Shown piece by piece: positions 20 through 35,686 of a DNA stretch of 35,686 bases. Positions within the stretch are counted from its first letter, which is position 1; each line of letters starts with the position of its first letter. The stretch lies in IMG/VR virus record IMGVR_UViG_2923302340_000008, one strand, 5' to 3'. The stretch comes from a virus (taxonomy: Duplodnaviria > Heunggongvirae > Uroviricota > Caudoviricetes). A model generated the notes under the pieces. The model made no database searches. It was not told where the DNA came from and saw nothing but the letters and a program-made list of their open reading frames with translations. Position numbers and translations under genes: made by a program.

Positions 20-1315
20 TTAATTTTTTATTGCTTCATTATGGGGCATGGTTGGGGCAAACTCGCTTAACTGTGTATTTAACAAAGCTAGCTGTGCATT
101 ATTGTTTTCAGACATCCATTTTCCGTATACCTGAAATACCATTTGCGCATCTGCATGGCCCATCTGGTTTGCTATAAATGCCGGGTTGGCACCAGCTGTC
201 AGCGACCAGCAGGCATAAGTATGTCTCGACTGATATGATTTTCGATGGCGGAGTCCGGCACGTTTTATCGCTGCGTCCCACATCTGCCTTATTGAGTCAA
301 CGGTAAAATGGTCACCATAATTTTTTACTCTCGCTGACACTTCAGGTTGAAAAACAAAGGTGCATTTTTGTTTTTCTGTTCTGCCATACTCTCTGAGGTG
401 AACATCAATGATATGCTCTTTACTCAGTCTCGTTAATGTCATCTGACTCCGGAGAGCGTCGATTGCTGGCTTAATAAGATGAATGACCCGATTGGTTCCC
501 GCCTGTGTTTTTGGTACCGTGAAACGGTCTTTTGCTAAATTTCTCCTGATCATCATTGTTCCATTTTTCAGATCTATGTCCTCCCATCCAAGTGCACACA
601 GCTCACCAGGGCGAACGCCAGTATAAACAGAAACACACCATAAATTTTTTGCTTGCTGATTTCTGCACGCATCGATAAGACGGATAAATTCCTCCCGCGA
701 AAGAGGATCCGGAATGGTTCTTGATTCCTTTAATGGCGAGATCCCCTTAAACGGATTATCTGCCAGGTAACCGTTATCAACACCAAACTGGAACACGGCG
801 TTAAGATTTGTCATGTAATTATTTACAGTTACAGCCGATCTCCCTGGTTGTGTAACAATATAGTTACTTTTGGGGATCTGGTATCCAGTCAGTAGCTCTT
901 TACGAACCTCCAGTAATTTTTCTTTATTAATCGATGAGGCAAGATTTTTTTCACCGATTATGCTCAGGATATTTTTGATGACGGCACGGTATGTGTTGAG
1001 TGATGTTTTGGCGACTTCAGTTTCTTTCAGTGCCAGAAATTTTTCAGCCAGTTCTTTTATGGTTAAATCTTGTCGGGCCTCACCAAATTTTTCCAGATTG
1101 CGTGAGGAGGGAAACTGTTTTGCATAGTCGAAAACACCAGTTTTTATTGCGTAACAAACAGAGGAGCGTAGTTCACCTGCAACGCGCCTGTTTTTTGCTG
1201 TGTCAGGAACCCCCAGATTTTCCCTGACTCTTACGCCTTTATAAACAAACCAGATACGTAATTTCCCTCCATGGTTTTCCACGCCTGTCGGATATTTCAT
1301 TTCAACTTCTCTCAT
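20..1315 (-). CDS. int: Phage tyrosine integrase (site-specific recombinase)
   Basis: 431-aa ORF with a tyrosine-recombinase-like C-terminal region (…RHTYACWSLTAGANPAFIANQMGHADAQMVFQVYGKW…). It lies at the prophage end, downstream of an excisionase-like gene. An alternative start at the second Met (MKYPTG) is possible. Confidence 0.85.
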   Translation of the reverse strand: MREVEMKYPTGVENHGGKLRIWFVYKGVRVRENLGVPDTAKNRRVAGELRSSVCYAIKTGVFDYAKQFPSSRNLEKFGEARQDLTIKELAEKFLALKETEVAKTSLNTYRAVIKNILSIIGEKNLASSINKEKLLEVRKELLTGYQIPKSNYIVTQPGRSAVTVNNYMTNLNAVFQFGVDNGYLADNPFKGISPLKESRTIPDPLSREEFIRLIDACRNQQAKNLWCVSVYTGVRPGELCALGWEDIDLKNGTMMIRRNLAKDRFTVPKTQAGTNRVIHLIKPAIDALRSQMTLTRLSKEHIIDVHLREYGRTEKQKCTFVFQPEVSARVKNYGDHFTVDSIRQMWDAAIKRAGLRHRKSYQSRHTYACWSLTAGANPAFIANQMGHADAQMVFQVYGKWMSENNNAQLALLNTQLSEFAPTMPHNEAIKN

Positions 1316-4771: not shown

Positions 4772-4827
4772 AAACGGCGGCAGAGCAGTCACGGAGTAAA
4801 ACTGATACCGCCAAACGTCACCAGAAA
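4772..4827 (-). ncRNA. dicF: DicF small regulatory RNA (ftsZ translation inhibitor)
   Basis: The reverse complement of 4776..4827 reads TTTCTGGTGACGTTTGGCGGTATCAGTTTTACTCCGTGACTGCTCTGCCGCC, matching the recalled about 53-nt DicF sequence. A GGCGG…CCGCC stem and a U-tract follow. It sits directly upstream of dicB as in Qin. Confidence 0.85.
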
Positions 4828-8372: not shown

Positions 8373-8621
8373 CCGAAAGGTCAACAGCGTCGAAACAGGC
8401 TGCGGCGCAGGAATGTCGCCGGAACAGCAACGGATACCAGAGACAAAAAATTTTGGGGAGTAGTCGGGGAGTCGGTAACAGAGCTTAGGTAGAGCAATTG
8501 ATGCCAACTGACCTCTAACGTTTTGTTTCATGTTGTCATTATGTTTCAATTTAGTGGAATTGTTAATAAAGTGTTTTTATAATTAAAAACCAAACTACAG
8601 ATAGCATGGAGCTTTTGTTCA

Positions 8622-10178
8622 ATGAATGCCTATAAATTCAGAAATAATGATGAGATTGGAAAATTAGAGGCGGAAACTGATTCTTATCTTGATGCTTGTT
8701 TTTATGAGTCCAATGTTTTTAAAGGTATTGTGAATTTTGACTCTACTGAGAAGAATCCTGATTTTACAAGAAGAATTATTGTTGGAAGAACAGGAAGCGG
8801 TAAGTCTGCGTTGCTTAAAAAAATATTAGACAAAGGAAATATTAAGCTGCATGACACAATAGAGGCAGAAAATACGATATTTGAACATATTAATAACAAT
8901 GTGTTTATATCTGATTTGATCTCGAAAGGGATAGATTTACGTGGGTTTTATAAATCGTTATGGCTGCATGTATTACTTATGAAAGTTATACCAGCCGTTT
9001 ATCGTTCTTCCTATCAAAGCTTTTTTGAGGAAATTAAAGATCTTATTGGTGGTAAGAAGAAACCGTATAAACCAGAAGTTGCGAATGATTATATTGAACA
9101 ATTTAAAGAAAATTTCTTCAATGATAAAGCGCTCATTGAAATAAGTAACAAGCTTGAAAGTGATTTGTCATTCAAACTCGGAAATTCCGCTGTTGGTGTG
9201 GGTGGTAAAATATCTAATTCTGATACAGCCAAAATACAATCAGAAACTTCAAGTTATGTGAGTCGTGAACTTCTTTTTAAACAAAAAGAACTTATTAAAA
9301 TACTTAAAGAGGAGTTCGCTGACTCAAACCAGGTTAGAATAGTAATCAGTATCGATGATTTAGATAAATCTTGGTTAAGCACGAGCGCCATCAGATATGA
9401 CTTTATTAATGCTCTTCTTGAGGCCTTTCGAGAATTATTAGATATAAAGTCGGTTAAGGTTCTGATATCAATAAGAACAGATATTTTAATGGGAATTTAT
9501 AAAAGTAGTTTAAGGCAGGATGAGAAAGATCAATCTTTAATATATTCCATATCATGGAATAAAACGGAAATAAGAGAGATTATTGATGCTAGAATTAACC
9601 ATTTGGTTAAAAATAGATATCAATCAAATAAGTCTGTATTAATGAAGGATATTTTTAATTTTACAGTTGAAGGTATTGGAGCAGATGATTATATCCTTGA
9701 CAGAACAATGCTTAGGCCTAGAGATGCAATTAATTTCGTAAATATATGTCTTTCTGAGTGCGATGGTATGGTTAACATGAATGAAAATATTGTGTTAATT
9801 GCCGAAGAGAAATTTTATTCGTCCAGAAAGAGAGCTTTGGTTACAGAATGGAAAAGCATATATCCGTTTATCGAAGAATATTTGGATGTGCTTTCCTTGA
9901 TTTCATTTTCTGATTTTACAGTCTCAAACATAGGACAAGCAGTAAAAGATGATATATCGCAGCATTTACTTGATAGATTGACTGTAGTTAAAGAGGATGA
10001 TCAACATACAAAAATATTGATGAATTTTGAGGAGTTACTTAAAGTCTGGTTCGTCGTAGGCGTGGTTGGCATAAGGAAAACAGTATCTTTAATTTTATAT
10101 TCATCTTTTGATAAACCTAATTTGGATATTACTGATATGAAGAGAGATTTTGTAATACATCCGTTGTTTGATAGGTAA
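8622..10178 (+). CDS. AT-rich P-loop NTPase of unassigned family (candidate defence or abortive-infection protein)
   Basis: 518-aa ORF. Walker A is IIVGRTGSGKSALLKKI near residue 55. Walker B-like VRIVISIDDLDKSW lies near residue 243. Candidate sensor and arginine motifs are ISIRTD and LRPRD. Base composition is markedly AT-rich versus flanks. A TATAAT hexamer sits at 8578..8583 and a GGAG RBS upstream. Confidence 0.75.
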   Translation: MNAYKFRNNDEIGKLEAETDSYLDACFYESNVFKGIVNFDSTEKNPDFTRRIIVGRTGSGKSALLKKILDKGNIKLHDTIEAENTIFEHINNNVFISDLISKGIDLRGFYKSLWLHVLLMKVIPAVYRSSYQSFFEEIKDLIGGKKKPYKPEVANDYIEQFKENFFNDKALIEISNKLESDLSFKLGNSAVGVGGKISNSDTAKIQSETSSYVSRELLFKQKELIKILKEEFADSNQVRIVISIDDLDKSWLSTSAIRYDFINALLEAFRELLDIKSVKVLISIRTDILMGIYKSSLRQDEKDQSLIYSISWNKTEIREIIDARINHLVKNRYQSNKSVLMKDIFNFTVEGIGADDYILDRTMLRPRDAINFVNICLSECDGMVNMNENIVLIAEEKFYSSRKRALVTEWKSIYPFIEEYLDVLSLISFSDFTVSNIGQAVKDDISQHLLDRLTVVKEDDQHTKILMNFEELLKVWFVVGVVGIRKTVSLILYSSFDKPNLDITDMKRDFVIHPLFDR

Positions 10179-10408
10179 TAGCAATGTGAATATGTTGAGA
10201 CTACTGGAAAAGCTATAACTCCTTTAGTAAAGTTTCCGTGGGTGCTTGAGGCTATCTGTCTCAGGCATGAACACCAAAGGCAGATAGAGAAAAGCCCCAG
10301 TTAACATTACGCGTCCTGCAAGACGCTTAACATTAATCTGAGGCCAATTTCATGCTAGACACATGTAGGTTAGCCTCTTACGTGCCGAAAGGCAAGGAGA
10401 AGCAGGCT

Positions 10409-10564
10409 ATGAAGCAGCAAAAGGCGATGTTAATCGCCCTGATCGTCATCTGTTTAACCGTCATAGTGACGGCACTGGTAACGAGGAAAGACCTTTGCGA
10501 GGTACGAATCCGAACCGGCCAGACGGAGGTCGCTGTCTTCACAGCTTACGAACCTGAGGAGTAA
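10409..10564 (+). CDS. hokD: Hok-family type I toxin (HokD/RelF-like)
   Basis: 51-aa product MKQQKAMLIALIVICLTVIVTALVTRKDLCEVRIRTGQTEVAVFTAYEPEE matches recalled Hok-family sequence. GGAGA RBS. An in-frame upstream extension from 10352 is present. Confidence 0.85.
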   Translation: MKQQKAMLIALIVICLTVIVTALVTRKDLCEVRIRTGQTEVAVFTAYEPEE

Positions 10565-12457: not shown

Positions 12458-12835
12458 ATGCGTGATATTCAGATGGTTCTTGAGCGTTGGGGGGCATGGG
12501 CGGCTAATAATCATGAAGATGTGACCTGGTCGTCCATTGCCGCCGGTTTTAAGGGATTAATTCCTTCAAAAGTAAGATCTCGTCCGCAATGCTGTGACGA
12601 TGACGCGATGATCATTTGTGAATGTATGGCTCGCCTGAAAAAAAACAACAGCGATTTACATGATTTATTGGTGGACTATTATGTCGGCGGCATGACTTTT
12701 ATGGCGCTTGCACGTAAGCATGGGCGATCTGATTGTTGGGTTGGCAGGATGCTCCAGAAAGCTGAGGGCGTAGTGGAGGGCATGCTGATGGTGTTGGATC
12801 TCCGATTGGAGATGGATGCTGATTGTTCGAAATAA
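12458..12835 (+). CDS. Putative late-gene antiterminator Q
   Basis: 125-aa ORF ([21 protein letters not shown]…) with a Cys cluster. It sits at the Q position and is followed by a promoter-like sequence and a strong terminator. Confidence 0.55.
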
Positions 12836-12935
12836 TCAAAGGAAAAGTTGCTGTCTGATTTTCATTAGTCTAACATTTTAAATGTTGGAATCGCAACGTA
12901 GTTATTATCATATAACAGCTTGTTTCCTGATTTAG

Positions 12936-12962
12936 CCAGCCTCCCCAAAGGCTGGTTTTTTT
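12936..12962 (+). terminator. Rho-independent terminator (candidate tR' after Q)
   Basis: CCAGCC-tccccaaa-GGCTGG hairpin followed by seven T residues. Confidence 0.7.
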
Positions 12963-12990: not shown

Positions 12991-13515
12991 TTATTGTTTA
13001 ACCCATAATAGTTCATTGACATTGAATCCCAACTTTTGAGCGGTACGCACATAGTCTGCTTTTACATTATCTGGAATAGTTTGGGTCCTTGCCAGAATCC
13101 ATAGGTATTCTCTGTTCGGACCACTGACAAGAGCATACTTATACTCATCATCCAGCTTGATTACATTATAGCCACCATAGAAGGGGCCAAAAAACGAAAC
13201 TTTCAACGCTGCAGTTTTAGTATCTCCAGTAAAGTATGCTTTACCTTCGCTCTCGCTCCATTTGTTTTTCGTTGGATCGTATCCACGGTTAAGTACGCGA
13301 ATCCCTCCGTCGTTCCGTTTTTCATAAGTAGCGCTGACTTGTTCCAGACCACGTTCGAACCAGTTCTCGAGGCGAGCTATTTCATACCATTTTCCGAGGT
13401 AGCGGTTGGCGTCAAAATTTGTAATCGGCTGCACACCTTTAGGTGGTGTCGGGGCCTTACATGCTATAAGAGTGAAAGAGAGTGCAATGCCAGTCAACAC
13501 AGGCCATAACTTCAT
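12991..13515 (-). CDS. blc: Blc-like outer-membrane lipocalin lipoprotein (moron)
   Basis: 174-aa ORF with a signal peptide and lipobox (LIAC). Lipocalin-like motifs (NFDANRYLGKWYEIARLENWFERG) are present. Confidence 0.75.
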   Translation of the reverse strand: MKLWPVLTGIALSFTLIACKAPTPPKGVQPITNFDANRYLGKWYEIARLENWFERGLEQVSATYEKRNDGGIRVLNRGYDPTKNKWSESEGKAYFTGDTKTAALKVSFFGPFYGGYNVIKLDDEYKYALVSGPNREYLWILARTQTIPDNVKADYVRTAQKLGFNVNELLWVKQ

Positions 13516-13707: not shown

Positions 13708-14667
13708 ATGATAAAAAAACCTGTGATTGGGATCAGCGGTTGTTTGGGCGGTTCTGCTGTTCGTTTTGATGGTGGTCACAAAAGAGATGACTTTTTAATG
13801 GACAAATTAGTGGAATGGGTAACATTCAGACCAGTATGTCCGGAAATGGCTATAGGGCTGCCAGTTCCGCGTCCTGCTCTACGACTTGTGCGCTCGAAGC
13901 AAGGAAATATACGGATGTGTTTCAGCCACGACCAGAATGAGGATGTGACAGAGAGAATGACAGAGTTTAGTCGTTCTTATATGGACAAATTAAAGGATGT
14001 ATCGGGGTTTGTGGTTTGTGCTAAATCTCCCAGCTGTGGCATGGAGCGCGTGCGTGTCTATGATGAAAATGGTAATCGAGGTCGTAAAGATGGAGTGGGA
14101 CTATTTACGAGCACTTTGATGGAAAAGTTTTCCTGGCTACCGGTTGAAGAGGATGGGCGATTACATGATCCAGTGCTTCGTGAGAATTTTATTGAAAGAG
14201 TTTTTGCTTTGCATGAGCTCAATCATCTTTACAAGGAGAAATTATCAAGAAGAGAGTTATTAGCTTTTCATAGTCGTTATAAGCTTCAGTTGTTGGCGCA
14301 TAGCCAGGCAGGCTATAAAGATATGGGACCATTTGTGGCTGCAATACACGAGTGGGCGGACCTTGAATCATACTTTGAGGTGTATCGTGATAATCTGATG
14401 GCGATTCTCAGAAAACCAGCATCACGTAAAAATCACACGAATGTGCTGATGCATATACAGGGGTATTTTAGTAATTACTTAAGTACACGCCAGCGTAAAG
14501 AGTTGAGCGAGGTTATACTTAACTATCGCTTTGGCACATTGCCTCTTCTTGCGCCGTTGACTCTGCTGAAGCATTATCTGGGTGAGTATCCTAATGATTA
14601 CTTGCTTACACAGAATTACTTCGATCCCTATCCGGAAGAACTGGCTCTAAGACTGATGGTGAATTAA
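13708..14667 (+). CDS. DUF523/DUF1722 fusion protein (TudS-like Cys-rich N-domain with YbgA-like C-domain)
   Basis: 319-aa ORF. The N-terminus GISGCLGGSAVRFDGGHK plus further conserved Cys residues suggest DUF523. The C-terminal half is helical, as in DUF1722. This assignment is from memory. Confidence 0.55.
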   Translation: MIKKPVIGISGCLGGSAVRFDGGHKRDDFLMDKLVEWVTFRPVCPEMAIGLPVPRPALRLVRSKQGNIRMCFSHDQNEDVTERMTEFSRSYMDKLKDVSGFVVCAKSPSCGMERVRVYDENGNRGRKDGVGLFTSTLMEKFSWLPVEEDGRLHDPVLRENFIERVFALHELNHLYKEKLSRRELLAFHSRYKLQLLAHSQAGYKDMGPFVAAIHEWADLESYFEVYRDNLMAILRKPASRKNHTNVLMHIQGYFSNYLSTRQRKELSEVILNYRFGTLPLLAPLTLLKHYLGEYPNDYLLTQNYFDPYPEELALRLMVN

Positions 14668-14759
14668 CTGTATGCGATATCATCTGAAAGTGATGAGTTC
14701 CTGTATGCAGGATATTTACAATCGTAAAAACTACGCTATGATGCCCATTGGATTTGCCC

Positions 14760-15665
14760 CTATATTTCCAGACATCTGTTATCACTTAACCCATTACAGG
14801 CCCGCTGCCGCAGATATTCCCGTGGCGAGCGATAACCCAGCGCACTATGCGGATGCCATTCGTTATAATGCTCGAACGCCTCTGCAAGGTTCTTTGCTGC
14901 CGTTAACCCGTCTGGTTTGGGCATGATACTGATGTAGTCACGCTTTATCGTTTTCACGAAGCTCTCTGCTATTCCGTTACTCTCCGGACTCCGCACCGCC
15001 GTGTTCTTCGGTTCAAGTCCCAACATCCGGGCGAACTGGCGTGTTTCATTAGCCCGGTAGCATGAACCATTATCCGTCAGCCACTCCACTGGAGACGACG
15101 GAAGATCGTTGCCGAAGCGGCGTTCCACCGCTCCCAGCATGACGTCCTGTACTGTTTCACTGTTGAAGCCGCCAGTAGTCACCGCCCAGTGCAGTGCCTC
15201 ACGATCACTGCAGTCCAGCGCGAACGTGACACGCAGTCTCTCTCCGTTATCACAGCAGAACTCGAACCCGTCAGAGCACCATCGCTGATTGCTTTCTTTC
15301 ACGGCCACTCTGCCTGTATGTGCCCGTTTCGATGGCGGTACAGCAGGTTTTCGCTCAAGCAACAGCGCATTCTGGCGCATGATCCGGTAAACACGTTTGG
15401 CATTGATCGCAGGCATACCATCAAGTTCTGCCTGTCTGCGAAGCAGCGCCCATACCCGACGATAACCATACGTGGGCAGCTCTCCGATAACATGGTGTAT
15501 ACGGAGAAGCACATCCGTATCATCAGTGTGACGACTGCGGCGGCCATCCATCCAGTCATCGGTTCGTCTGAGAATGACGTGCAACTGCGCACGCGACACC
15601 CGGAGACAACGGCTGACTAAGCTTACTCCCCATCCCCGGGCAATAAGGGCGCGTGCGCTATCCAC
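14760..15665 (-). CDS. insD: IS2 transposase InsD (OrfB)
   Basis: 301-aa product [23 protein letters not shown]… matches recalled IS2 InsD. DDE integrase core. Confidence 0.9.
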
Positions 15666-15988
15666 TTTTTTGCCCGTCCATATTCAACGGCTTCTTTGAG
15701 GAGTTCATTTTCCATCGTTTTCTTGCCGAGCAGGCGCTGGAGTTCTTTAATCTGCTTCATGGCGGCAGCAAGTTCAGAGGCAGGAACAACCTGTTCTCCG
15801 GCGGCGACAGCAGTAAGACTTCCTTCCTGGTATTGCTTACGCCAGAGAAATAACTGGCTGGCTGCTACACCATGTTGCCGGGCAACGAGGGAGACCGTCA
15901 TCCCCGGTTCAAAGCTCTGCTGAACAATTGCGATCTTTTCCTGTGTGGTACGCCGTCTGCGTTTCTCCGGCCCTAAGACATCAATCAT
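15623..15988 (-). CDS. insC: IS2 InsC (OrfA)
   Basis: 121-aa product [24 protein letters not shown]… matches recalled IS2 InsC. It overlaps the insD start, as expected for a frameshift fusion. Confidence 0.85.
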
Positions 15989-16400
15989 CTGTTCTCCAAT
16001 GACTAGTCTAAAAACTAGTATTAAGACTATCACTTATTTAAGTGATACTGGTTGTCTGGAGATTCAGGGGGCCAGTCTACCCATAGTGTCAGTTTGTATA
16101 AAAATCCTGTTCACGCTAAAGAAAACATTGAGATGCAATTTAATGTTGGTAAACATACCAGCCCCAAAAGATTTTATTCAATCTGTTTTTATATGAAGAT
16201 ATTTCAAGTGAATATTAAGAGCATATAATATTATTATTGCACGCAGCTATTATAATATAACAGATTAGTTTAATGATTTGTTTTTTGTGAGTTAAACACA
16301 TGGTTTTATAGTTGTGATGCAATGAGATTTTCCTTATTGTTGAACTGGCGAATATTGATTTTCCACCTATACTTACCTGGTGTAACCCCAATGATATCAG

Positions 16401-17123
16401 GTGGATAATATGCCATACATATGTTCTATCATTTTGGTGTTGAACTCGTTTGGTGTCCGAATTGGTAAAGAAGATATTTTGTTTAAAAAAGGAAATGCTG
16501 TCCTCATTGAATACAATTTAAAAGATCTTTTTTCGTCAAATACAGATCATCTAATGATCGTAGATGTTGAGGAGAAAACAGTTAATGATTTCTTTAAAAA
16601 CTACACACTCTCACCTTTTTCTGTAAGAAGGTTTTATCCGTCATACTTGATAGTAGAATGTGAAGATTTTTCATTGTTAAGGAACTTGGTTGCATGCTTG
16701 AATTGTGATAGCAAAACCGTGGATGTAGTTAGAAATCAAATATCACTTGCATGTCTTGCTGTCTTATCTTCAGAGAAAATAGTGCAAAGTTTTTTGTTCG
16801 GAAGTCTTAATAGCTTAGGTTGTAAAGTTAAGGCTATTATTCACTCGGATATCTCAGCGTCATGGAGACTTTGTGATATATCTTCAAGATTATATATGAG
16901 CGAGAGTTTGTTAAAAAGAAAATTAAAAGACGAAGGATTATCGTTTAGTAAATTAATTCTTGAAGAACGAATGATGATGGCGCAAAGATTATTGATCTAC
17001 AGTAACCATACTGTCGGCAAGGTGGCGGGAATATGCGGGTATGACAATGCATCATATTTTGTAAGTGTTTTTAGAGGATATTTTGGTGTGCCTCCGCACC
17101 AATATTTATCAAGATTTTCTTAG
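16401..17123 (+). CDS. AraC/XylS-family transcriptional regulator (AppY/PatE-like)
   Basis: 240-aa ORF in a strongly AT-rich segment. The C-terminus carries an AraC-type HTH (…KVAGICGYDNASYFVSVFRGYFGVPPHQY). Confidence 0.75.
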   Translation: MDNMPYICSIILVLNSFGVRIGKEDILFKKGNAVLIEYNLKDLFSSNTDHLMIVDVEEKTVNDFFKNYTLSPFSVRRFYPSYLIVECEDFSLLRNLVACLNCDSKTVDVVRNQISLACLAVLSSEKIVQSFLFGSLNSLGCKVKAIIHSDISASWRLCDISSRLYMSESLLKRKLKDEGLSFSKLILEERMMMAQRLLIYSNHTVGKVAGICGYDNASYFVSVFRGYFGVPPHQYLSRFS

Positions 17124-17313
17124 AAGATATGATGTGATGGCATTTTATAAAGTTATTTTTTGAAGTGTAAGATTATACGATATTTTTAGCTACGCCAGAA
17201 TAATTGCTGGCGTTTTTCTTTTTGAATAGATGTTCGGGCCTTACGCTAATGTAACTTCTTTCCTTCTTCGAACCAAACCGTGTACACCATCCGTTATCTG
17301 CGGAGGTGAGGCT

Positions 17314-17529
17314 ATGAAATCCATGGATAAGTTAACAACGGGCATCGCCTACAGCACCTCTGCAGGCAGTGCTGGCTACTGGTTTTTACAGTTGCTCGAT
17401 AAAGTCACGCCCTCACAGTGGGCGGCAATAGGTGTATTGGGTAGTCTGGTATTTGGCATGCCGACGTATCTGACAAACCTTTATTTCAAGATTAAAGAAG
17501 ACAGGCGTAAGGTTGCGAGAAGAGAGTAA
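17314..17529 (+). CDS. Class II holin (S21-like pinholin)
   Basis: 71-aa product with dual start MKSM and motif [15 protein letters not shown]…[13 protein letters not shown]…[15 protein letters not shown] resembling recalled S21. GGAGG RBS. Confidence 0.8.
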
Positions 17530-17533
17530 TCCA

Positions 17534-18085
17534 ATGACTCAAGACTATGAACTGGTTGTGAAAGGAGTTCGCAATTTTGAGAATAAAGTGGCGGTAACTG
17601 TAGCCTTACGGGACAAAAAACACTTTGACGGTGAAATTTTTGACCTGGACATCTCGCTGGACCGTGTTGAAGGTGCCGCGCTGGAGTTTTATGAGGCAGC
17701 AGCCAGAAGGAGCATCAGACAGGTCTTCCTGGATGTTGCTGCCGGGTTATGTGAAGGGGATGAGCAGTCGCCGGAAAAGCGCCCCATAATTTTAGAGGCG
17801 CAGAATGTGTGGATAACCTACAAAGGAAAGCTACCGGGAAGAATTACTGGTTCTCTGAAGACGCCACCGACGGCATTGCGGTCAGAAAAAGATGATATTG
17901 AATCGCCCATTGAAAAACTGGAGGGCAGCGTCGCTGATCTGAATAAAAAATTGTCGGTGCTGATTCCTTCTGAAGATGAAAAAAAACGCCGCGATGAGCA
18001 GTTTGCGGCGTTTTACGATTATTGCATTGAAGTTACTCGCAGGAATTTTGTGAAGATTTTTGAGGAGGGTAAATCTCTTCAGTAA
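17534..18085 (+). CDS. Hypothetical protein between holin and endolysin
   Basis: 183-aa acidic ORF at the position Qin ydfR occupies. Weak RBS. Family unknown. Confidence 0.45.
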   Translation: MTQDYELVVKGVRNFENKVAVTVALRDKKHFDGEIFDLDISLDRVEGAALEFYEAAARRSIRQVFLDVAAGLCEGDEQSPEKRPIILEAQNVWITYKGKLPGRITGSLKTPPTALRSEKDDIESPIEKLEGSVADLNKKLSVLIPSEDEKKRRDEQFAAFYDYCIEVTRRNFVKIFEEGKSLQ

Positions 18086-19433: not shown

Positions 19434-19793
19434 ATTAATATTAAATCGGATTATTTTTAGCGCTGAATGTGAAATTTAAATAAAAAGGACTCTTCCATGA
19501 GTCAAAATCCTTGAAATCTTAAGGGTAAGATAAAAGGTCATTAGACAGAATGACACGTTTTATTAATAAATAAAGCTATTGTTTCATTCGTGTGTTTTTC
19601 TTTACAAAAGTAATCCTTGCTATGGTTGGTTAATCATGCGTTAATGGTGTTCTGGTTTGTTACAAAATTATCTGAAGCAGTCATTGTTATAATTTTATTA
19701 TTTGTACCTCTTGAGATTTCCTTGTTGGTTTTTCTCTCTGATATTTTTTTTCGGACCATTCTGCCCAAGGGCTAACTTCTTCAAAAGGTAATA

Positions 19794-20009
19794 ATGATGT
19801 CTAACAAAATGACTGGTTTAGTGAAATGGTTTAACCCTGAAAAAGGTTTTGGTTTCATCACGCCGAAAGATGGTAGCAAAGATGTGTTTGTCCATTTCTC
19901 AGCTATTCAGAGCAACGATTTCAAAACGTTAACTGAGAATCAGGAAGTCGAATTTGGTATTGAGAACGGACCTAAAGGCCCCGCGGCTGTTCATGTTGTG
20001 GCACTTTGA
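19794..20009 (+). CDS. Cold-shock protein (CspB/CspI-like)
   Basis: [38 protein letters not shown]… carries RNP1/RNP2 cold-shock-domain motifs. A long AT-rich 5' leader precedes it. Confidence 0.9.
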
Positions 20010-20213
20010 GGTAGAAAATATTACAAACCATATTCACTTTAGATGCCCGTGTTGCCATGGTTCTCAGTATAGAACATCATCTTTTGATGTTTCTGACAGG
20101 AATCCTTTCGGGGCAAAATGTATCTTTTGTAAATCAATGATGATTACATTTGATAATATTTCACAATACTTAAATGTTAGCCGTCTATCGTTAGATTTAA
20201 GAAAGTGAAAATG

Positions 20214-26236: not shown

Positions 26237-28045
<1,809 letters not shown>

Positions 28046-28764: not shown

Positions 28765-28775
28765 GTGGGGTGAAT

Positions 28776-31802: not shown

Positions 31803-32377
31803 TGGCATTCAGAATGAGTGAACAACCACGGACCATAAAAATTTATAATCTGCTGTCCGGAACTAATGAATTTATTGGTGAAGGTGATGCATATATTCCG
31901 CCTCATACAGGTCTGCCAGCAAACAGTACCGATATTGCACCGCCAGATATTCCGGCTGGTTTCGTGGCTGTTTTCAACAGTGATGAGTCATCGTGGCATC
32001 TCGTTGAAGATCATCGGGGTAAAACGGTTTATGACGTGGCTTCCGGCGACGCGTTATTTATTTCTGAACTCGGCTCATTACCGGAAAATGTCACCTGGTT
32101 ATCCCCGGAAGGGGAGTTTCAGAAGTGGAACGGCACAGCCTGGGTGAAGGATACGGAAGCAGAAAAACTGTTCCGGATCCGGGAGGCGGAAGAAACAAAA
32201 AACAGCCTGATGCAGGTAGCCAGTGAGCATATAGCGCCGCTTCAGGATGCTGTGGATCTGGAGATCGCAACGGAGGAAGAAACCTTGTTGCTGGAAGCCT
32301 GGAAAAAGTATCGGGTGTTGCTGAACCGTGTTGATACATCAACTGCACCGGATATTGAATGGCCAGCCCTACCGTAG
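31802..32377 (+). CDS. tfa: Tail fibre assembly protein Tfa
   Basis: 191-aa ORF overlapping the stf stop (TAATG). Size and position match lambda Tfa. Confidence 0.8.
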
Positions 32378-32474: not shown

Positions 32475-33065
32475 TTATATATCAGGTGTCTGATTTTTTG
32501 CTTTAGCTCTTAAAATGGTTTGCCGCGAGGTTTTGAATTCTTGGGCAATGTCACTTATATTTATACCTGACTTAATTTGCTCTAGTACCCTCTGTATTTG
32601 TTCATCATTTAACACAGGTGGGCGACCAAATCGCTTTCCTGCGCCCCGTGCTCTTAATATCCCTGAATGAGTACGCTCAAGTAAAAGGTCTCGCTCAAAT
32701 TCAGCGACTGCTGAAATTACTTGCATCATCATTTTTCCAGGTGGACTGGTCAGGTCAACGCCCCCCAATGCTAAGCAATGCACTTTGATACCTGCTTTGG
32801 TCAGTTGTTCCACCGTTTTACTGATATCCATTGGATTACAACCGAGGCGATCCAGTTTTGTGACAATCAATGCATCACCTCTTTTCAGTCGATCAAGCAA
32901 CTGGTTAAAACCAGGACGCTCACTGGTTGCTGCTGAGCCGCTAATTTGTTCTTCAATTATTTGCTGAGATTTGATGTTAAAACCTGCACTTTCGATTTCC
33001 CGACGTTGATTTTTGGTTGTTTGTTCCAGAGTTGATACCCGACAGTAAGCATAAATTCGAGACAT
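32475..33065 (-). CDS. pin: Serine recombinase / DNA invertase (Pin/Gin/Hin family)
   Basis: 196-aa product [15 protein letters not shown]… has the catalytic Ser near the N-terminus and a C-terminal HTH. Length matches PinQ/PinR. Confidence 0.9.
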
Positions 33066-33383
33066 AGTGAGATCTTCTATACGAAATTGGTGTACATATC
33101 ATAATGCATCTCAGGAAATAATTTTGATTATTTTTGTACATATTTGTATGTACACGTTCGAAAATAAACGAATGCGTATGCAACCCCGTAATTTTGGTGA
33201 GACCCAAAATCGATTTTGTGAAAAATGGCCTTAACTCGGTTTGTTTTTCGAGTTCCGGGCGGACTCAAGGAAGAAGAATAGTGTTGCGTGTTATTTCAAC
33301 CAGATTTCAAGTTGTTTGGTCGTGGAAAAGTGGAGCAAAATGTTGTTAAAGTGGAAAAATGATAAAAAAGTAAGTTTATTATA

Positions 33384-33617
33384 TTACATTTTACCATTTA
33401 AATTTTTGTTGTCTTTAAGAACTGATATCGCTGTTTGTAATAATTCTTTGTTATCCAGCCATGACTTTTTCTTTATGTTTCCTTCAATGTAATCAAGCAA
33501 TGTTCTGGTATTGATAGGTCTTCCCTGTTTTGCTACTTCCACTACAGCATCCCCTAGGATAATTCTTACTTCAGGAAGCTGCGCAGGGAACCACTTTAGG
33601 GTGTCTTTTGATTTCAT
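33384..33617 (-). CDS. ydfK: YdfK/YnaE-like small protein
   Basis: 77-aa product MKSKDTLKWFPAQLPEVRIILGDAVVEVAKQGRPINTRTLLDYIEGNIKKK… matches recalled YdfK/YnaE. It lies adjacent to pin as in Qin. Confidence 0.75.
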   Translation of the reverse strand: MKSKDTLKWFPAQLPEVRIILGDAVVEVAKQGRPINTRTLLDYIEGNIKKKSWLDNKELLQTAISVLKDNKNLNGKM

Positions 33618-34402
33618 GAAGATATTCCTTAAAATATTATTGATTTTCATTGCGATATTGTATGTCTGATTCAGGATATGTTGACTTATACATCGGTTTT
33701 GTCTGGGTTATTGGATATGCCAATCCCTAATTTTATTAGAGCATGACTAAAAATGCTGAATATGATAAGGAGCGAAGTGATTATCAGTATGCTGTTCATA
33801 TAGCCTCGAATTAGTAATGTGTTATATATGATATAGTTGACAATTTTTATCCTGGGGGTTCTTAAAGTTCGTAGATAAACATTGTCGTTTCAGGTATACA
33901 GGAATGCTAACAGGTGGCGGCAAAAATCAGGCGGTTTATGGCGCAAGCTGAAGTGGCAACTGCAAACTATCTTATGCAGAGACTCTACACGGATTGGGTT
34001 TAAAAGTATACATAGATAACAGTTTTTATCTGAAGAAGAAAAATATCAAGGTGATATAGCCTATATGCCTTTGATGCGGAGGAATGAATGTGATGGGAGT
34101 GATGTATCTGAATAGTTGAAAAACCGCAGACACGCCTTATGCAAGAACGTGCTGCGGTTGGCTGGTAAATTTTTCGATAGTGCGAGTATTGAATGATTTC
34201 CAGCCGTTATTGATTTTACGCGTAAATCCATGAAAAAACTACTTATCTGTTGGGGAGTCTTTTTGGGGCATATATGGGACAGAAATAGGCCCCAGATAGA
34301 CACTGAGATCGAACTTAGGATGCTTTTTAAAAAATGCAACTATCTGAAAAAACCTAGAAAACGCCAAGGAAACCACAGGATGGGAAAAAACACCTGTGAA
34401 TT

Positions 34403-35686
34403 ATGGATTTCCAGTTATATTCGCTCGGCGCAGCGTTAGTGTTTCATGAAATATTTTTTCCTGAATCATCAACGGCAATGGCGTTAATTCTGGCAATGGG
34501 AACCTACGGTGCAGGTTATGTGGCGCGTATTGTCGGAGCATTTATTTTCGGCAAAATGGGCGACAGAATCGGGCGTAAAAAAGTGCTCTTTATTACCATC
34601 ACTATGATGGGGATCTGTACTACCTTAATTGGTGTGCTGCCGACCTATGCACAAATTGGTGTGTTTGCGCCAATTTTGCTGGTGACGCTGCGTATTATTC
34701 AGGGGCTGGGGGCAGGCGCGGAAATTTCCGGTGCCGGCACGATGCTGGCGGAATATGCACCAAAAGGTAAGCGCGGAATTATCTCCTCATTTGTTGCTAT
34801 GGGGACTAACTGCGGAACCTTGAGCGCAACGGCAATCTGGGCCTTTATGTTCTTCATTCTCAGTAAAGAGGAACTGCTTGCGTGGGGATGGCGTATACCG
34901 TTCCTGGCGAGCGTTGTCGTGATGGTCTTTGCTATCTGGTTGCGTATGAATCTGAAAGAAAGCCCGGTCTTTGAGAAGGTTAACGACAGCAACCAACCGA
35001 CAGCAAAACCTGCACCTGCTGGTAGCATGTTCCAGAGCAAATCCTTCTGGCTGGCAACAGGGCTGCGTTTTGGTCAGGCTGGTAACTCCGGTTTAATTCA
35101 GACTTTCCTTGCAGGCTATTTAGTGCAGACGTTATTGTTTAACAAAGCAATTCCAACAGATGCATTGATGATCAGTTCGATTCTCGGCTTTATGACCATT
35201 CCGTTCCTTGGTTGGTTATCCGATAAAATAGGTCGCCGGATCCCGTATATTATTATGAATACCTCTGCGATTGTGCTGGCGTGGCCAATGCTTTCTATCA
35301 TCGTAGATAAAAGCTATGCCCCGAGCACCATTATGGTTGCACTGATTGTGATTCATAACTGTGCGGTGCTGGGATTATTTGCTCTGGAAAACATTACCAT
35401 GGCAGAAATGTTCGGCTGTAAAAACCGCTTTACCCGGATGGCGATTTCTAAAGAAATTGGTGGTCTTATCGCTTCCGGTTTTGGTCCTATCCTGGCGGGT
35501 ATTTTCTGCACCATGACGGAATCCTGGTATCCGATCGCCATTATGATCATGGCATATTCAGTGATTGGTTTAATCTCTGCGCTGAAAATGCCAGAAGTGA
35601 GAGACCGTGATTTAAGTGCACTGGAAGATGCCGCGGAAGATCAACCGCGTGTTGTAACAGCTGCGCAACCTTCAAGAAGTCTGTAA
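34403..35686 (+). CDS. ydfJ: MFS-family metabolite:H+ symporter YdfJ (host gene; 5' part apparently separated by the prophage)
   Basis: 427-aa ORF with multiple TM segments. It begins at MDFQLY…, resembling the conserved N-terminal MFS motif, but an in-frame TGA lies 4 nt upstream. The product matches recalled YdfJ, the known Qin insertion target. Confidence 0.8.
   Translation: MDFQLYSLGAALVFHEIFFPESSTAMALILAMGTYGAGYVARIVGAFIFGKMGDRIGRKKVLFITITMMGICTTLIGVLPTYAQIGVFAPILLVTLRIIQGLGAGAEISGAGTMLAEYAPKGKRGIISSFVAMGTNCGTLSATAIWAFMFFILSKEELLAWGWRIPFLASVVVMVFAIWLRMNLKESPVFEKVNDSNQPTAKPAPAGSMFQSKSFWLATGLRFGQAGNSGLIQTFLAGYLVQTLLFNKAIPTDALMISSILGFMTIPFLGWLSDKIGRRIPYIIMNTSAIVLAWPMLSIIVDKSYAPSTIMVALIVIHNCAVLGLFALENITMAEMFGCKNRFTRMAISKEIGGLIASGFGPILAGIFCTMTESWYPIAIMIMAYSVIGLISALKMPEVRDRDLSALEDAAEDQPRVVTAAQPSRSL

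Follow-up and report, generated by a model that had tools for sequence, protein, structure and literature searches.

An AraC/XylS-type regulator gene in the Q-to-holin gap of a Qin-like Escherichia coli prophage, a candidate lysogenic-conversion factor

The 35,686-nucleotide (nt) sequence of the IMG/VR virus record IMGVR_UViG_2923302340_000008, called the window below, holds an essentially whole, defective Qin-like lambdoid prophage of Escherichia coli. It carries a gene for an AraC/XylS-type regulator in an AT-rich island between the antiterminator gene Q and the holin gene. From sequence comparison, we consider it fairly probable that this gene (the AraC gene) is a moron encoding a trans-acting regulator of lysogenic conversion.

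The AraC Gene and Its AT-Rich Island

An open reading frame (ORF) of the AraC/XylS type is present at 16401 to 17123 on the plus strand. An earlier note on this DNA had described it as a 240-amino-acid (aa) ORF, which is its length if the GTG at 16401 is taken as the start. The gene was borne out, and its length was revised to 237 aa. The start conserved among five to seven aligned homologous loci is the ATG at 16410, preceded in the alignment by the invariant CAGGTGGATAATATG. Because this ATG is conserved and the GTG at 16401 falls within the Shine-Dalgarno (SD) sequence AGGTGG, 16410 is the true start. The Prokaryotic Genome Annotation Pipeline (PGAP) uses the same ATG in the homologous loci L001 (strain CFSAN061763) and L002. 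The features of the island are as follows.

16085 to 17230, plus strand: AT-rich island comprising promoter/leader, coding sequence (CDS) and terminator, with a guanine-plus-cytosine (GC) content of 0.320.
16346 to 16373, plus strand: proximal promoter-like element TGGCGA-16 nt-TATACT, 42 nt 5′ of the ATG, with C at −13; putative, called on conservation.
16399 to 16404, plus strand: SD AGGTGG, containing the GTG of the mechanical ORF call; CAGGTGG...ATG is invariant in five homologous loci.
16410 to 17123, plus strand: CDS of the AraC/XylS-type regulator, 237 aa, with an N-terminal regulatory domain (about residues 1–137) and a C-terminal double helix-turn-helix (HTH; about residues 138–235), assigned from Pfam, the conserved ATG and SD, and an AlphaFold 2 (AF2) model.
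17192 to 17223, plus strand: predicted intrinsic-terminator-like hairpin ACGCCAG-loop-CTGGCGT (7 pairs, 5 of them G-C) followed by a T-run, 69 nt past the stop codon.

The strong AT-richness relative to the prophage backbone, pointed out earlier, was confirmed. The GC content is 0.336 in the CDS (0.307 at third codon positions), 0.43–0.53 in the genes flanking the island and 0.466 in the whole window, and just 1.9% of segments of equal size are as AT-rich as 16085–17230. A search of Rfam found no known RNA within the island. Two small upstream ORFs, at 16052–16228 (plus strand) and 16215–16391 (minus strand), overlap the end of the insertion sequence (IS) IS2 or a stretch that is deleted in phage alleles.

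Protein Family and Predicted Structure

The C-terminal AraC HTH was recovered by Pfam as HTH_18 at residues 161–237 (E = 3e-16; 59.9 bits, cut-off 33.6) and as HTH_AraC (E = 6e-11), both above their gathering scores, as the earlier note had read it by eye. None of the NCBIfam equivalog cut-offs was reached; the best model was YdeO (score 112, cut-off 348), and the scores for HilD and GadX were 92 and 89.8 (cut-offs 354 and 500). PHROGs assigned the protein to phrog_1450, whose function is listed as unknown. The exact 237-aa protein occurs on 133 contigs of a public collection under generic names, and literature searches by protein accession and by topic (lambdoid, AraC, moron, lipocalin) returned no paper on it.

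Characterised paralogues were taken from annotated genomes and compared with the window protein by BLASTP, or by tblastn for PsrA. ECs_0287 of strain Sakai was equated with PatE/Z0321 (O-island 8) by position, being the sole AraC-type gene of prophage Sp1 at thrW. The gene psrA is ecs1087 of Sakai (PMC13502914).

PatE (Sakai ECs_0287): 47% identity, full length, BLASTP.
PsrA (ecs1087): 38% identity, tblastn.
GadW: 33% identity, full length, BLASTP.
AppY: 30% identity, full length, BLASTP.
YdeO: 29% identity, full length, BLASTP.
GadX: 41% identity, DNA-binding domain only.

The proposed kinship with AppY- and PatE-like regulators thus holds. By domain, the window protein is 65% identical to PatE in the DNA-binding half and 34% in the N-terminal half. 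The family alignment has the invariant residues C5, S164, S166, L167, K169 and L172, and the window protein shows both features of the clade, the N-terminal motif M-x-x-x-C-S-(V/I)-I and the recognition helix SESLLKxKL. K169 corresponds to K170 of AppY, and this lysine is invariant across the family; AppY K170E has served as the DNA-binding mutant control in chromatin immunoprecipitation sequencing (PMC10057817). Judged by these comparisons, the window protein is a two-domain activator of the AraC/XylS family, placed in the GadW/YdeO/AppY/PatE/Psr clade at the level of a paralogue.

The AF2 model had a mean predicted local distance difference test (pLDDT) score of 88 and a predicted template-modelling (pTM) score of 0.82, with strands at residues 3–54 and 79–83 followed by helices. 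The modelled C-terminal domain superposed on the GadX DNA-binding domain (3mkl) with a template-modelling (TM) score of 0.86–0.89 and a root-mean-square deviation of 1.4–1.7 Å, and it also fitted the DNA-binding domains of MarA and AraC. The best full-length structural neighbours were CsvR, Rns and ToxT (Foldseek E values 1e-11 to 1e-7), in agreement with a sequence search of the Protein Data Bank. The model is that of an AraC/XylS protein with the N-terminal regulatory and dimerisation domain of the predicted beta-barrel-plus-helices type.

Position in the Prophage

The early part of the window consists of the integrase gene (20–1315, minus strand), an exonuclease gene, DicF, a ydaT-like gene, an AT-rich KAP-NTPase gene, hok/sok, ydfU and Q. 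In the middle part, Q is followed by a lipocalin gene (minus strand), a YbgA-family gene, IS2, the AraC gene, the holin gene, DUF1327, the lysozyme gene, Rz and csp genes. The right part holds the terminase and portal genes, an IS3-family element, a tail fibre gene and a host major facilitator superfamily (MFS) gene. From this order, the AraC gene lies in the Q-to-holin gap, where the Q-dependent late operon begins, and its earlier assignment to the late region is correct. The genes around the gap are listed below.

12458 to 12835, plus strand: Q antiterminator, 125 aa, protein identical to WP_001204787.1 (“antiterminator Q family protein”).
12934 to 12957: predicted tR′-like terminator hairpin 3′ of Q.
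12991 to 13515, minus strand: Blc-like lipocalin gene, cargo (Pfam Lipocalin_2, 7.5e-43).
13708 to 14667, plus strand: YbgA-family gene, cargo, with a 2-thiouracil desulfurase domain (PF04463, 5.8e-40) and DUF1722 (PF08349, 9.4e-40).
17314 to 17529, plus strand: class II holin gene (essQ-type), opening the downstream lysis cassette, in which lysozyme and Rz follow; named as PGAP annotates it in L001, a locus with 99.8% identity.

The gap between Q and the lysis gene S is a classic cargo slot, and stx lies there in the Shiga toxin (Stx) phages. The lipocalin and YbgA genes are conserved cargo behind the same type of Q in the free phages IdasGreatGrand and Lambda_2G7a, and the PHROG families of both are listed with function unknown. 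The content of the slot varies: the order is Q-AraC-holin in another locus (L014) and Q-lipocalin-YbgA-AraC-holin in the window, and prophage Sp6 of Sakai carries other cargo at the same slot, with no AraC homologue. The AraC gene thus combines the marks of a moron, namely an atypical GC content, its own predicted terminator, and presence or absence between adjacent genes.

Proposed Proximal Promoter and Leader

Approximately 100 nt 5′ of the gene are conserved even where the proteins share just 47–60% identity. The leaders have a common plan, consisting of TGGC(A/G)A, a spacer of 16–17 nt, TATACT at −39 to −42 from the ATG, and the SD. The TATACT is invariant in the window, IdasGreatGrand, Lambda_2G7a, the loci of the more distant relatives P0013 and P0016, Sakai ECs_0287 (patE) and a patE-type gene of phage ev099; it was not found in the upstream regions of PsrA, YdeO and AppY. 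Between the window gene and patE, the leader has been kept although synonymous sites are saturated.

A TATACT with C at −13 is a form of the −10 element favoured by sigma-S. For patE itself, it is reported that patE (Z0321) is 6-fold RpoS-dependent (PMC2907692) and ECs0287 is induced on transition to stationary phase (PMC2241611). We infer that the proximal element at 16346–16373 is a patE-like, RpoS-dependent promoter. Reading the conserved TGGC motif as sigma-54-type was considered and given up on inspection by eye, as its distance from a GC element is wrong for this.

IS2 Insertion and the Distal Promoter-Like Site

Two further features lie between the YbgA gene and the AraC gene.

14715 to 14742, plus strand: distal promoter-like site TTTACA-16 nt-TATGAT, 10/12 matches, the joint-best consensus match in the region.
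14749 to 16079, minus strand (transposase genes): IS2, 1331 bp, defined by its terminal inverted repeats and by the 5-bp target duplication CCCAT at 14744–14748 and 16080–16084.

When IS2 and one CCCAT copy were deleted in silico, the exact 409-bp ybgA-AraC intergenic region of strain CFSAN061763 was restored. The left edge of the island at 16085 is therefore no natural boundary but the end of IS2 plus its duplication. The IS2 junction was found in none of 5426 complete E. coli genomes, and the target duplication is perfect, so the insertion is recent and strain-specific.

The distal site lies about 50 bp 3′ of the ybgA stop codon, ahead of roughly 100 nt of conserved non-coding DNA (14715–14748 and 16080–16200). 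It is near-invariant in all five loci with the lipocalin-YbgA-AraC block, and the flanks in Lambda_2G7a diverge. The site is also the mosaic boundary at which the Q-lipocalin-YbgA block gives way to the AraC block. Its product could be a long AraC leader, a small transcript or something else. The CCCAT duplication begins 2 bp past the distal −10 hexamer, and IS2 itself begins 6 bp past it, at the predicted start point. In the window strain, 1.3 kb of IS2 now separates the distal site from the AraC gene, so that just the putative proximal promoter would be left to serve the gene.

Activation of the AraC gene by IS2 was considered and rejected, since the transposase end (left inverted repeat, IRL) faces the gene. 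The outward −35 element of IS2 presumably lies in the right inverted repeat (IRR), which here points away from the AraC gene.

Distribution and Selection

The AraC gene was found in 922 of the 5426 complete E. coli genomes (17%), in all cases on the chromosome and never on a plasmid. Identity was at least 99% in 330 carrier genomes and 80–90% in 541. Most of the carriers are non-O157 strains, whose sources are humans, animals and water. The earlier note had named disruption in closely related sequences as evidence against its reading. Disruption does occur, in a minority such as strains 97.3 and CT01, while 878 of the 922 carriers (95%) have the gene without large interruption, defined as a single place covering at least 80% of the query. 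In several genomes (H7–H10), as in strain 97.3 (NZ_CP061758.1; locus L012, 2831–4831), an IS3 element splits the AraC gene after about 47 codons. IS elements have struck the AT-rich AraC island repeatedly.

Free temperate phages also carry alleles, with 86% aa identity in IdasGreatGrand and 76% in lambda-like phages of the Lambda_2G7a type, both between Q and holin. The distant relatives P0013 (60%) and P0016 (50%) and PsrA lie directly 3′ of three unrelated Q families, and PatE-type copies lie between tail-fibre assembly genes and int. The relatives of the AraC gene have no constant neighbours.

The ratio of nonsynonymous to synonymous substitution rates (dN/dS) was 0.21–0.25 against the phage-borne alleles; synonymous sites were saturated against PatE and PsrA. 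The window CDS differs from the alleles of each of two other strains by one amino acid (proportion of nonsynonymous differences, pN, 0.002; no synonymous differences). The AraC gene is under purifying selection and is not decaying.

Proposed Role and Alternative Explanations

The characterised relatives PatE, PsrA/B, AppY, GadW/X and YdeO all converge on the acid fitness island (PMC10877973, PMC10057817). Because every one of them converges there, gadE and hdeAB are probably the targets of the window protein, a view that we hold less firmly than the conversion-factor reading itself. In a lysogen, transcription would start from the proximal TGGCGA-16-TATACT promoter, probably under RpoS at the entry into stationary phase as for patE, and would probably be dampened by H-NS because the island is 68% A+T. 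The protein would bind AT-rich host promoters in trans, most likely those of gadE and hdeAB, and the outcome would be a rise in acid resistance of the kind that PatE, PsrB and AppY bring about. On prophage induction, the AraC gene may also be co-transcribed with the late operon in the manner of stx. In the window strain, where IS2 has severed the distal promoter-like site, the proximal promoter would serve the gene. The lysogenic-conversion role proposed in the earlier note is thus supported, as far as homology and genomic position can carry it.

Several points weigh against this reading. The N-terminal domain is so far from that of PatE (34% identity) that the input signal and the partners may differ, and the 35% divergence in the DNA-binding domain means that the regulon may differ too. 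We know of no PatE or PsrB binding motif that could be searched for. A scan for consensus promoters returned sites at chance level (14 against 11.9 expected), so that conservation alone carries the promoter assignment. The host prophage is defective and IS-ridden, and some genomes tolerate loss of the gene, as seen from strain 97.3, where it is interrupted by IS3, and CT01, where it is interrupted by an IS1-family element.

The gene of the window strain may instead be a silent passenger, silenced by H-NS, cut off from upstream transcription by IS2 and giving no phenotype, even if other members of the family do have a function. We regard this as unlikely. It would fit the IS2 copy at the predicted start point of the distal site, unique among the 5426 genomes, the 68% A+T of the island, and a defective prophage with a second IS, as well as the IS-disrupted alleles of other strains. 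However, the CDS is intact and only one amino acid away from two other alleles, and the proximal patE-like promoter, the SD and the terminator are untouched. The IS2 insertion is recent and therefore says little about long-term function.

The neighbouring cargo suggests another role, in which the AraC protein would be a local regulator of the adjacent lipocalin and YbgA genes, the three forming one accessory module. AraC-family proteins often control adjacent genes, and the order Q-lipocalin(minus strand)-YbgA-AraC-holin is kept in the window, other E. coli prophages, IdasGreatGrand and phages of the Lambda_2G7a type despite differing lysis cassettes. In fold, the protein is also similar to the Rns/ToxT class, whose members bind fatty acids, and lipocalins bind lipids. 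We nevertheless find local control quite improbable. DNA identity to IdasGreatGrand and Lambda_2G7a is 96.8% and 91.5% in the Q-lipocalin-YbgA block but 84% and 80% in the AraC block, and the GC contents are 0.43 and 0.32, so the two blocks are separate mosaic modules. Moreover, the distant members P0013, P0016, PatE and PsrA have no lipocalin or YbgA gene nearby, and the relatives with known function regulate host genes in trans.

A further reading, of slightly lower probability still, is that the protein is more than one additional gadE/hdeA activator, that the N-terminal domain senses a lipid or gut signal and that the protein governs a distinct regulon in commensal E. coli, perhaps as a three-gene module with lipocalin and YbgA that is also switched on at induction. 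It is suggested by the diverged N-terminal domain and by the Rns/ToxT-like fold.

A service to the phage life cycle, such as tuning the expression of lysis genes or the late operon, appears least probable: the same-strand slot directly 5′ of the holin gene recurs in at least four lineages, but many lambdoid phages and prophages, for example Sakai Sp6, have no such gene at this slot, where it is therefore dispensable, PatE-type copies lie at the int-proximal end, the gene has its own predicted terminator and an atypical GC content, phrog_1450 is listed with unknown function and not in a core module, and the Q-S gap is generally known as a place for cargo.

The conversion-factor reading is consistent with a known route, as prophage-borne AraC-like proteins (AppY, PatE, PsrA/B) are a means by which phages rewire acid resistance, biofilm formation and virulence of the host. 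The AraC gene is an uncharacterised yet common member of this class of prophage cargo and opens no new class of mechanism. What goes beyond routine annotation is just the patE-type leader and the strain-specific IS2 cut. About one-sixth of complete E. coli genomes carry the gene under generic database names, as do free temperate phages, and with such wide carriage it could be a frequent but unnoticed influence on the output of stress regulons among commensal and clinical strains. The leader held in common with the RpoS-dependent patE provides a concrete, testable prediction about its regulation.

Other Features of the Prophage

The KAP-family P-loop nucleoside triphosphatase (NTPase) gene encodes 518 aa at 8622–10178 on the plus strand (PF07693, 1.6e-6; phrog_13260). 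It occupies a second AT-rich island in the early region (AT-rich stretch 8500–10000), and the related prophage L001 has a DUF4209 gene on the opposite strand in this slot. PADLOC gave no defence-system match for the AraC, YbgA and KAP NTPase proteins.

Four Rfam matches reached the gathering threshold: DicF at 4775–4826 (minus strand), the sok antitoxin at 10240–10414 (plus strand), the cspA thermoregulator at 19639–20055 (plus strand) and IS009 at 32145–32343 (plus strand). The cspA thermoregulator match lies 5′ of a cspI-like gene, in a third AT-rich stretch. The DUF1327 (ydfR-like) ORF at 17513–18085 (plus strand) encodes 190 aa, and its domain match is limited to residues 8–119. Its counterparts in related genomes are flagged by PGAP as incomplete, with the C-terminus missing, which suggests that the 3′ part of the window ORF is fused or rearranged.

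An IS3-family transposase gene of 348 aa (26340–27521, minus strand) lies directly 3′ of the portal gene, with an isrC RNA match at 27399–27521. The prophage is defective because the head and tail genes are absent between the portal gene and the tail-fibre gene at 28770. Close to where the prophage presumably ends on the right, a further AT-rich stretch (33000–34500, GC 0.33–0.39) separates the tail-fibre assembly region from the host MFS transporter gene (from 34403, plus strand).

Comparison with Known Regulators

Rns, CsvR and ToxT gave the best full-length structural matches, a likeness at the level of the fold only. Their sequence identity to the window protein is 17–21% and the global TM score is about 0.44, kept low by a different arrangement of the two domains relative to each other in the model. 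The fatty-acid pocket of the Rns/ToxT type has basic residues that bind the carboxylate (H20 and R75 in Rns, lysines in ToxT).

GadW, GadX and YdeO of the acid-resistance system 2 (AR2) circuit have the same subfamily architecture and can be aligned over their full length. Unlike the AraC gene, they are core-genome loci, their identity to the window protein is 29–33%, and the scores are far below the equivalog cut-offs.

AppY of prophage DLP12 in K-12 is likewise a prophage-borne, AraC-like protein from an AT-rich gene (appY GC 0.32), with the DNA-contact lysine conserved. AppY binds and directly activates gadE, gadY and slp (PMC10057817). In contrast to the AraC gene, appY lies at the prophage end beside ompT, and AppY has extra hya/app targets and RpoS effects.

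The secretion regulators PsrA and PsrB (Sakai ecs1087; EDL933 z1789 and z2104) are also AraC-like and prophage-borne, and psrA lies just 3′ of Q in Sp4, a similar slot. PsrB was likened to the window protein via PsrA only, to which it is reported to be 90% identical. PatE and PsrB activate gadE/hdeA, and GadE is induced by PsrA and PsrB, which bind to its promoter and to that of hdeA (PMC10877973). At hdeA, PatE and PsrB bind the fragment from −132 to −45. In contrast to the window gene, psrA has a GC content of 0.42 and does not have the common leader, and the type III secretion system effector loci and Pch regulators that belong to PsrA/B are absent at the window locus. A placement of psrA in Sakai Sp6, the equivalent of O-island 50, was discarded, as no homologue is present there and psrA is ecs1087 in Sp4. 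The annotated start of psrA is probably too short: ECs_1087 (NC_002695.2; locus L009, 18677–19390) is annotated as 195 aa from L009 position 18803, and an open frame with homology to the window protein begins 126 nt upstream (MVVVCSVIM...).

PatE, the acid-resistance activator of CP-933H/Sp1 in enterohaemorrhagic E. coli O157:H7, is the best characterised match. The two proteins are similar in size (237 aa in the window, 247 aa for PatE), and both genes are prophage-borne and AT-rich (GC 0.34 and 0.35). The promoter/leader TGGCRA-16/17-TATACT-SD is also common to both, at an equal distance from the ATG. The slots differ, since the window gene lies in the Q-holin gap and patE between tail-fibre assembly genes and int. 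Identity between the two proteins is 47%, whereas PatE alleles are at least 84–98% identical to one another. Judged by identity and slot, the window gene is a paralogue of patE and not its orthologue.

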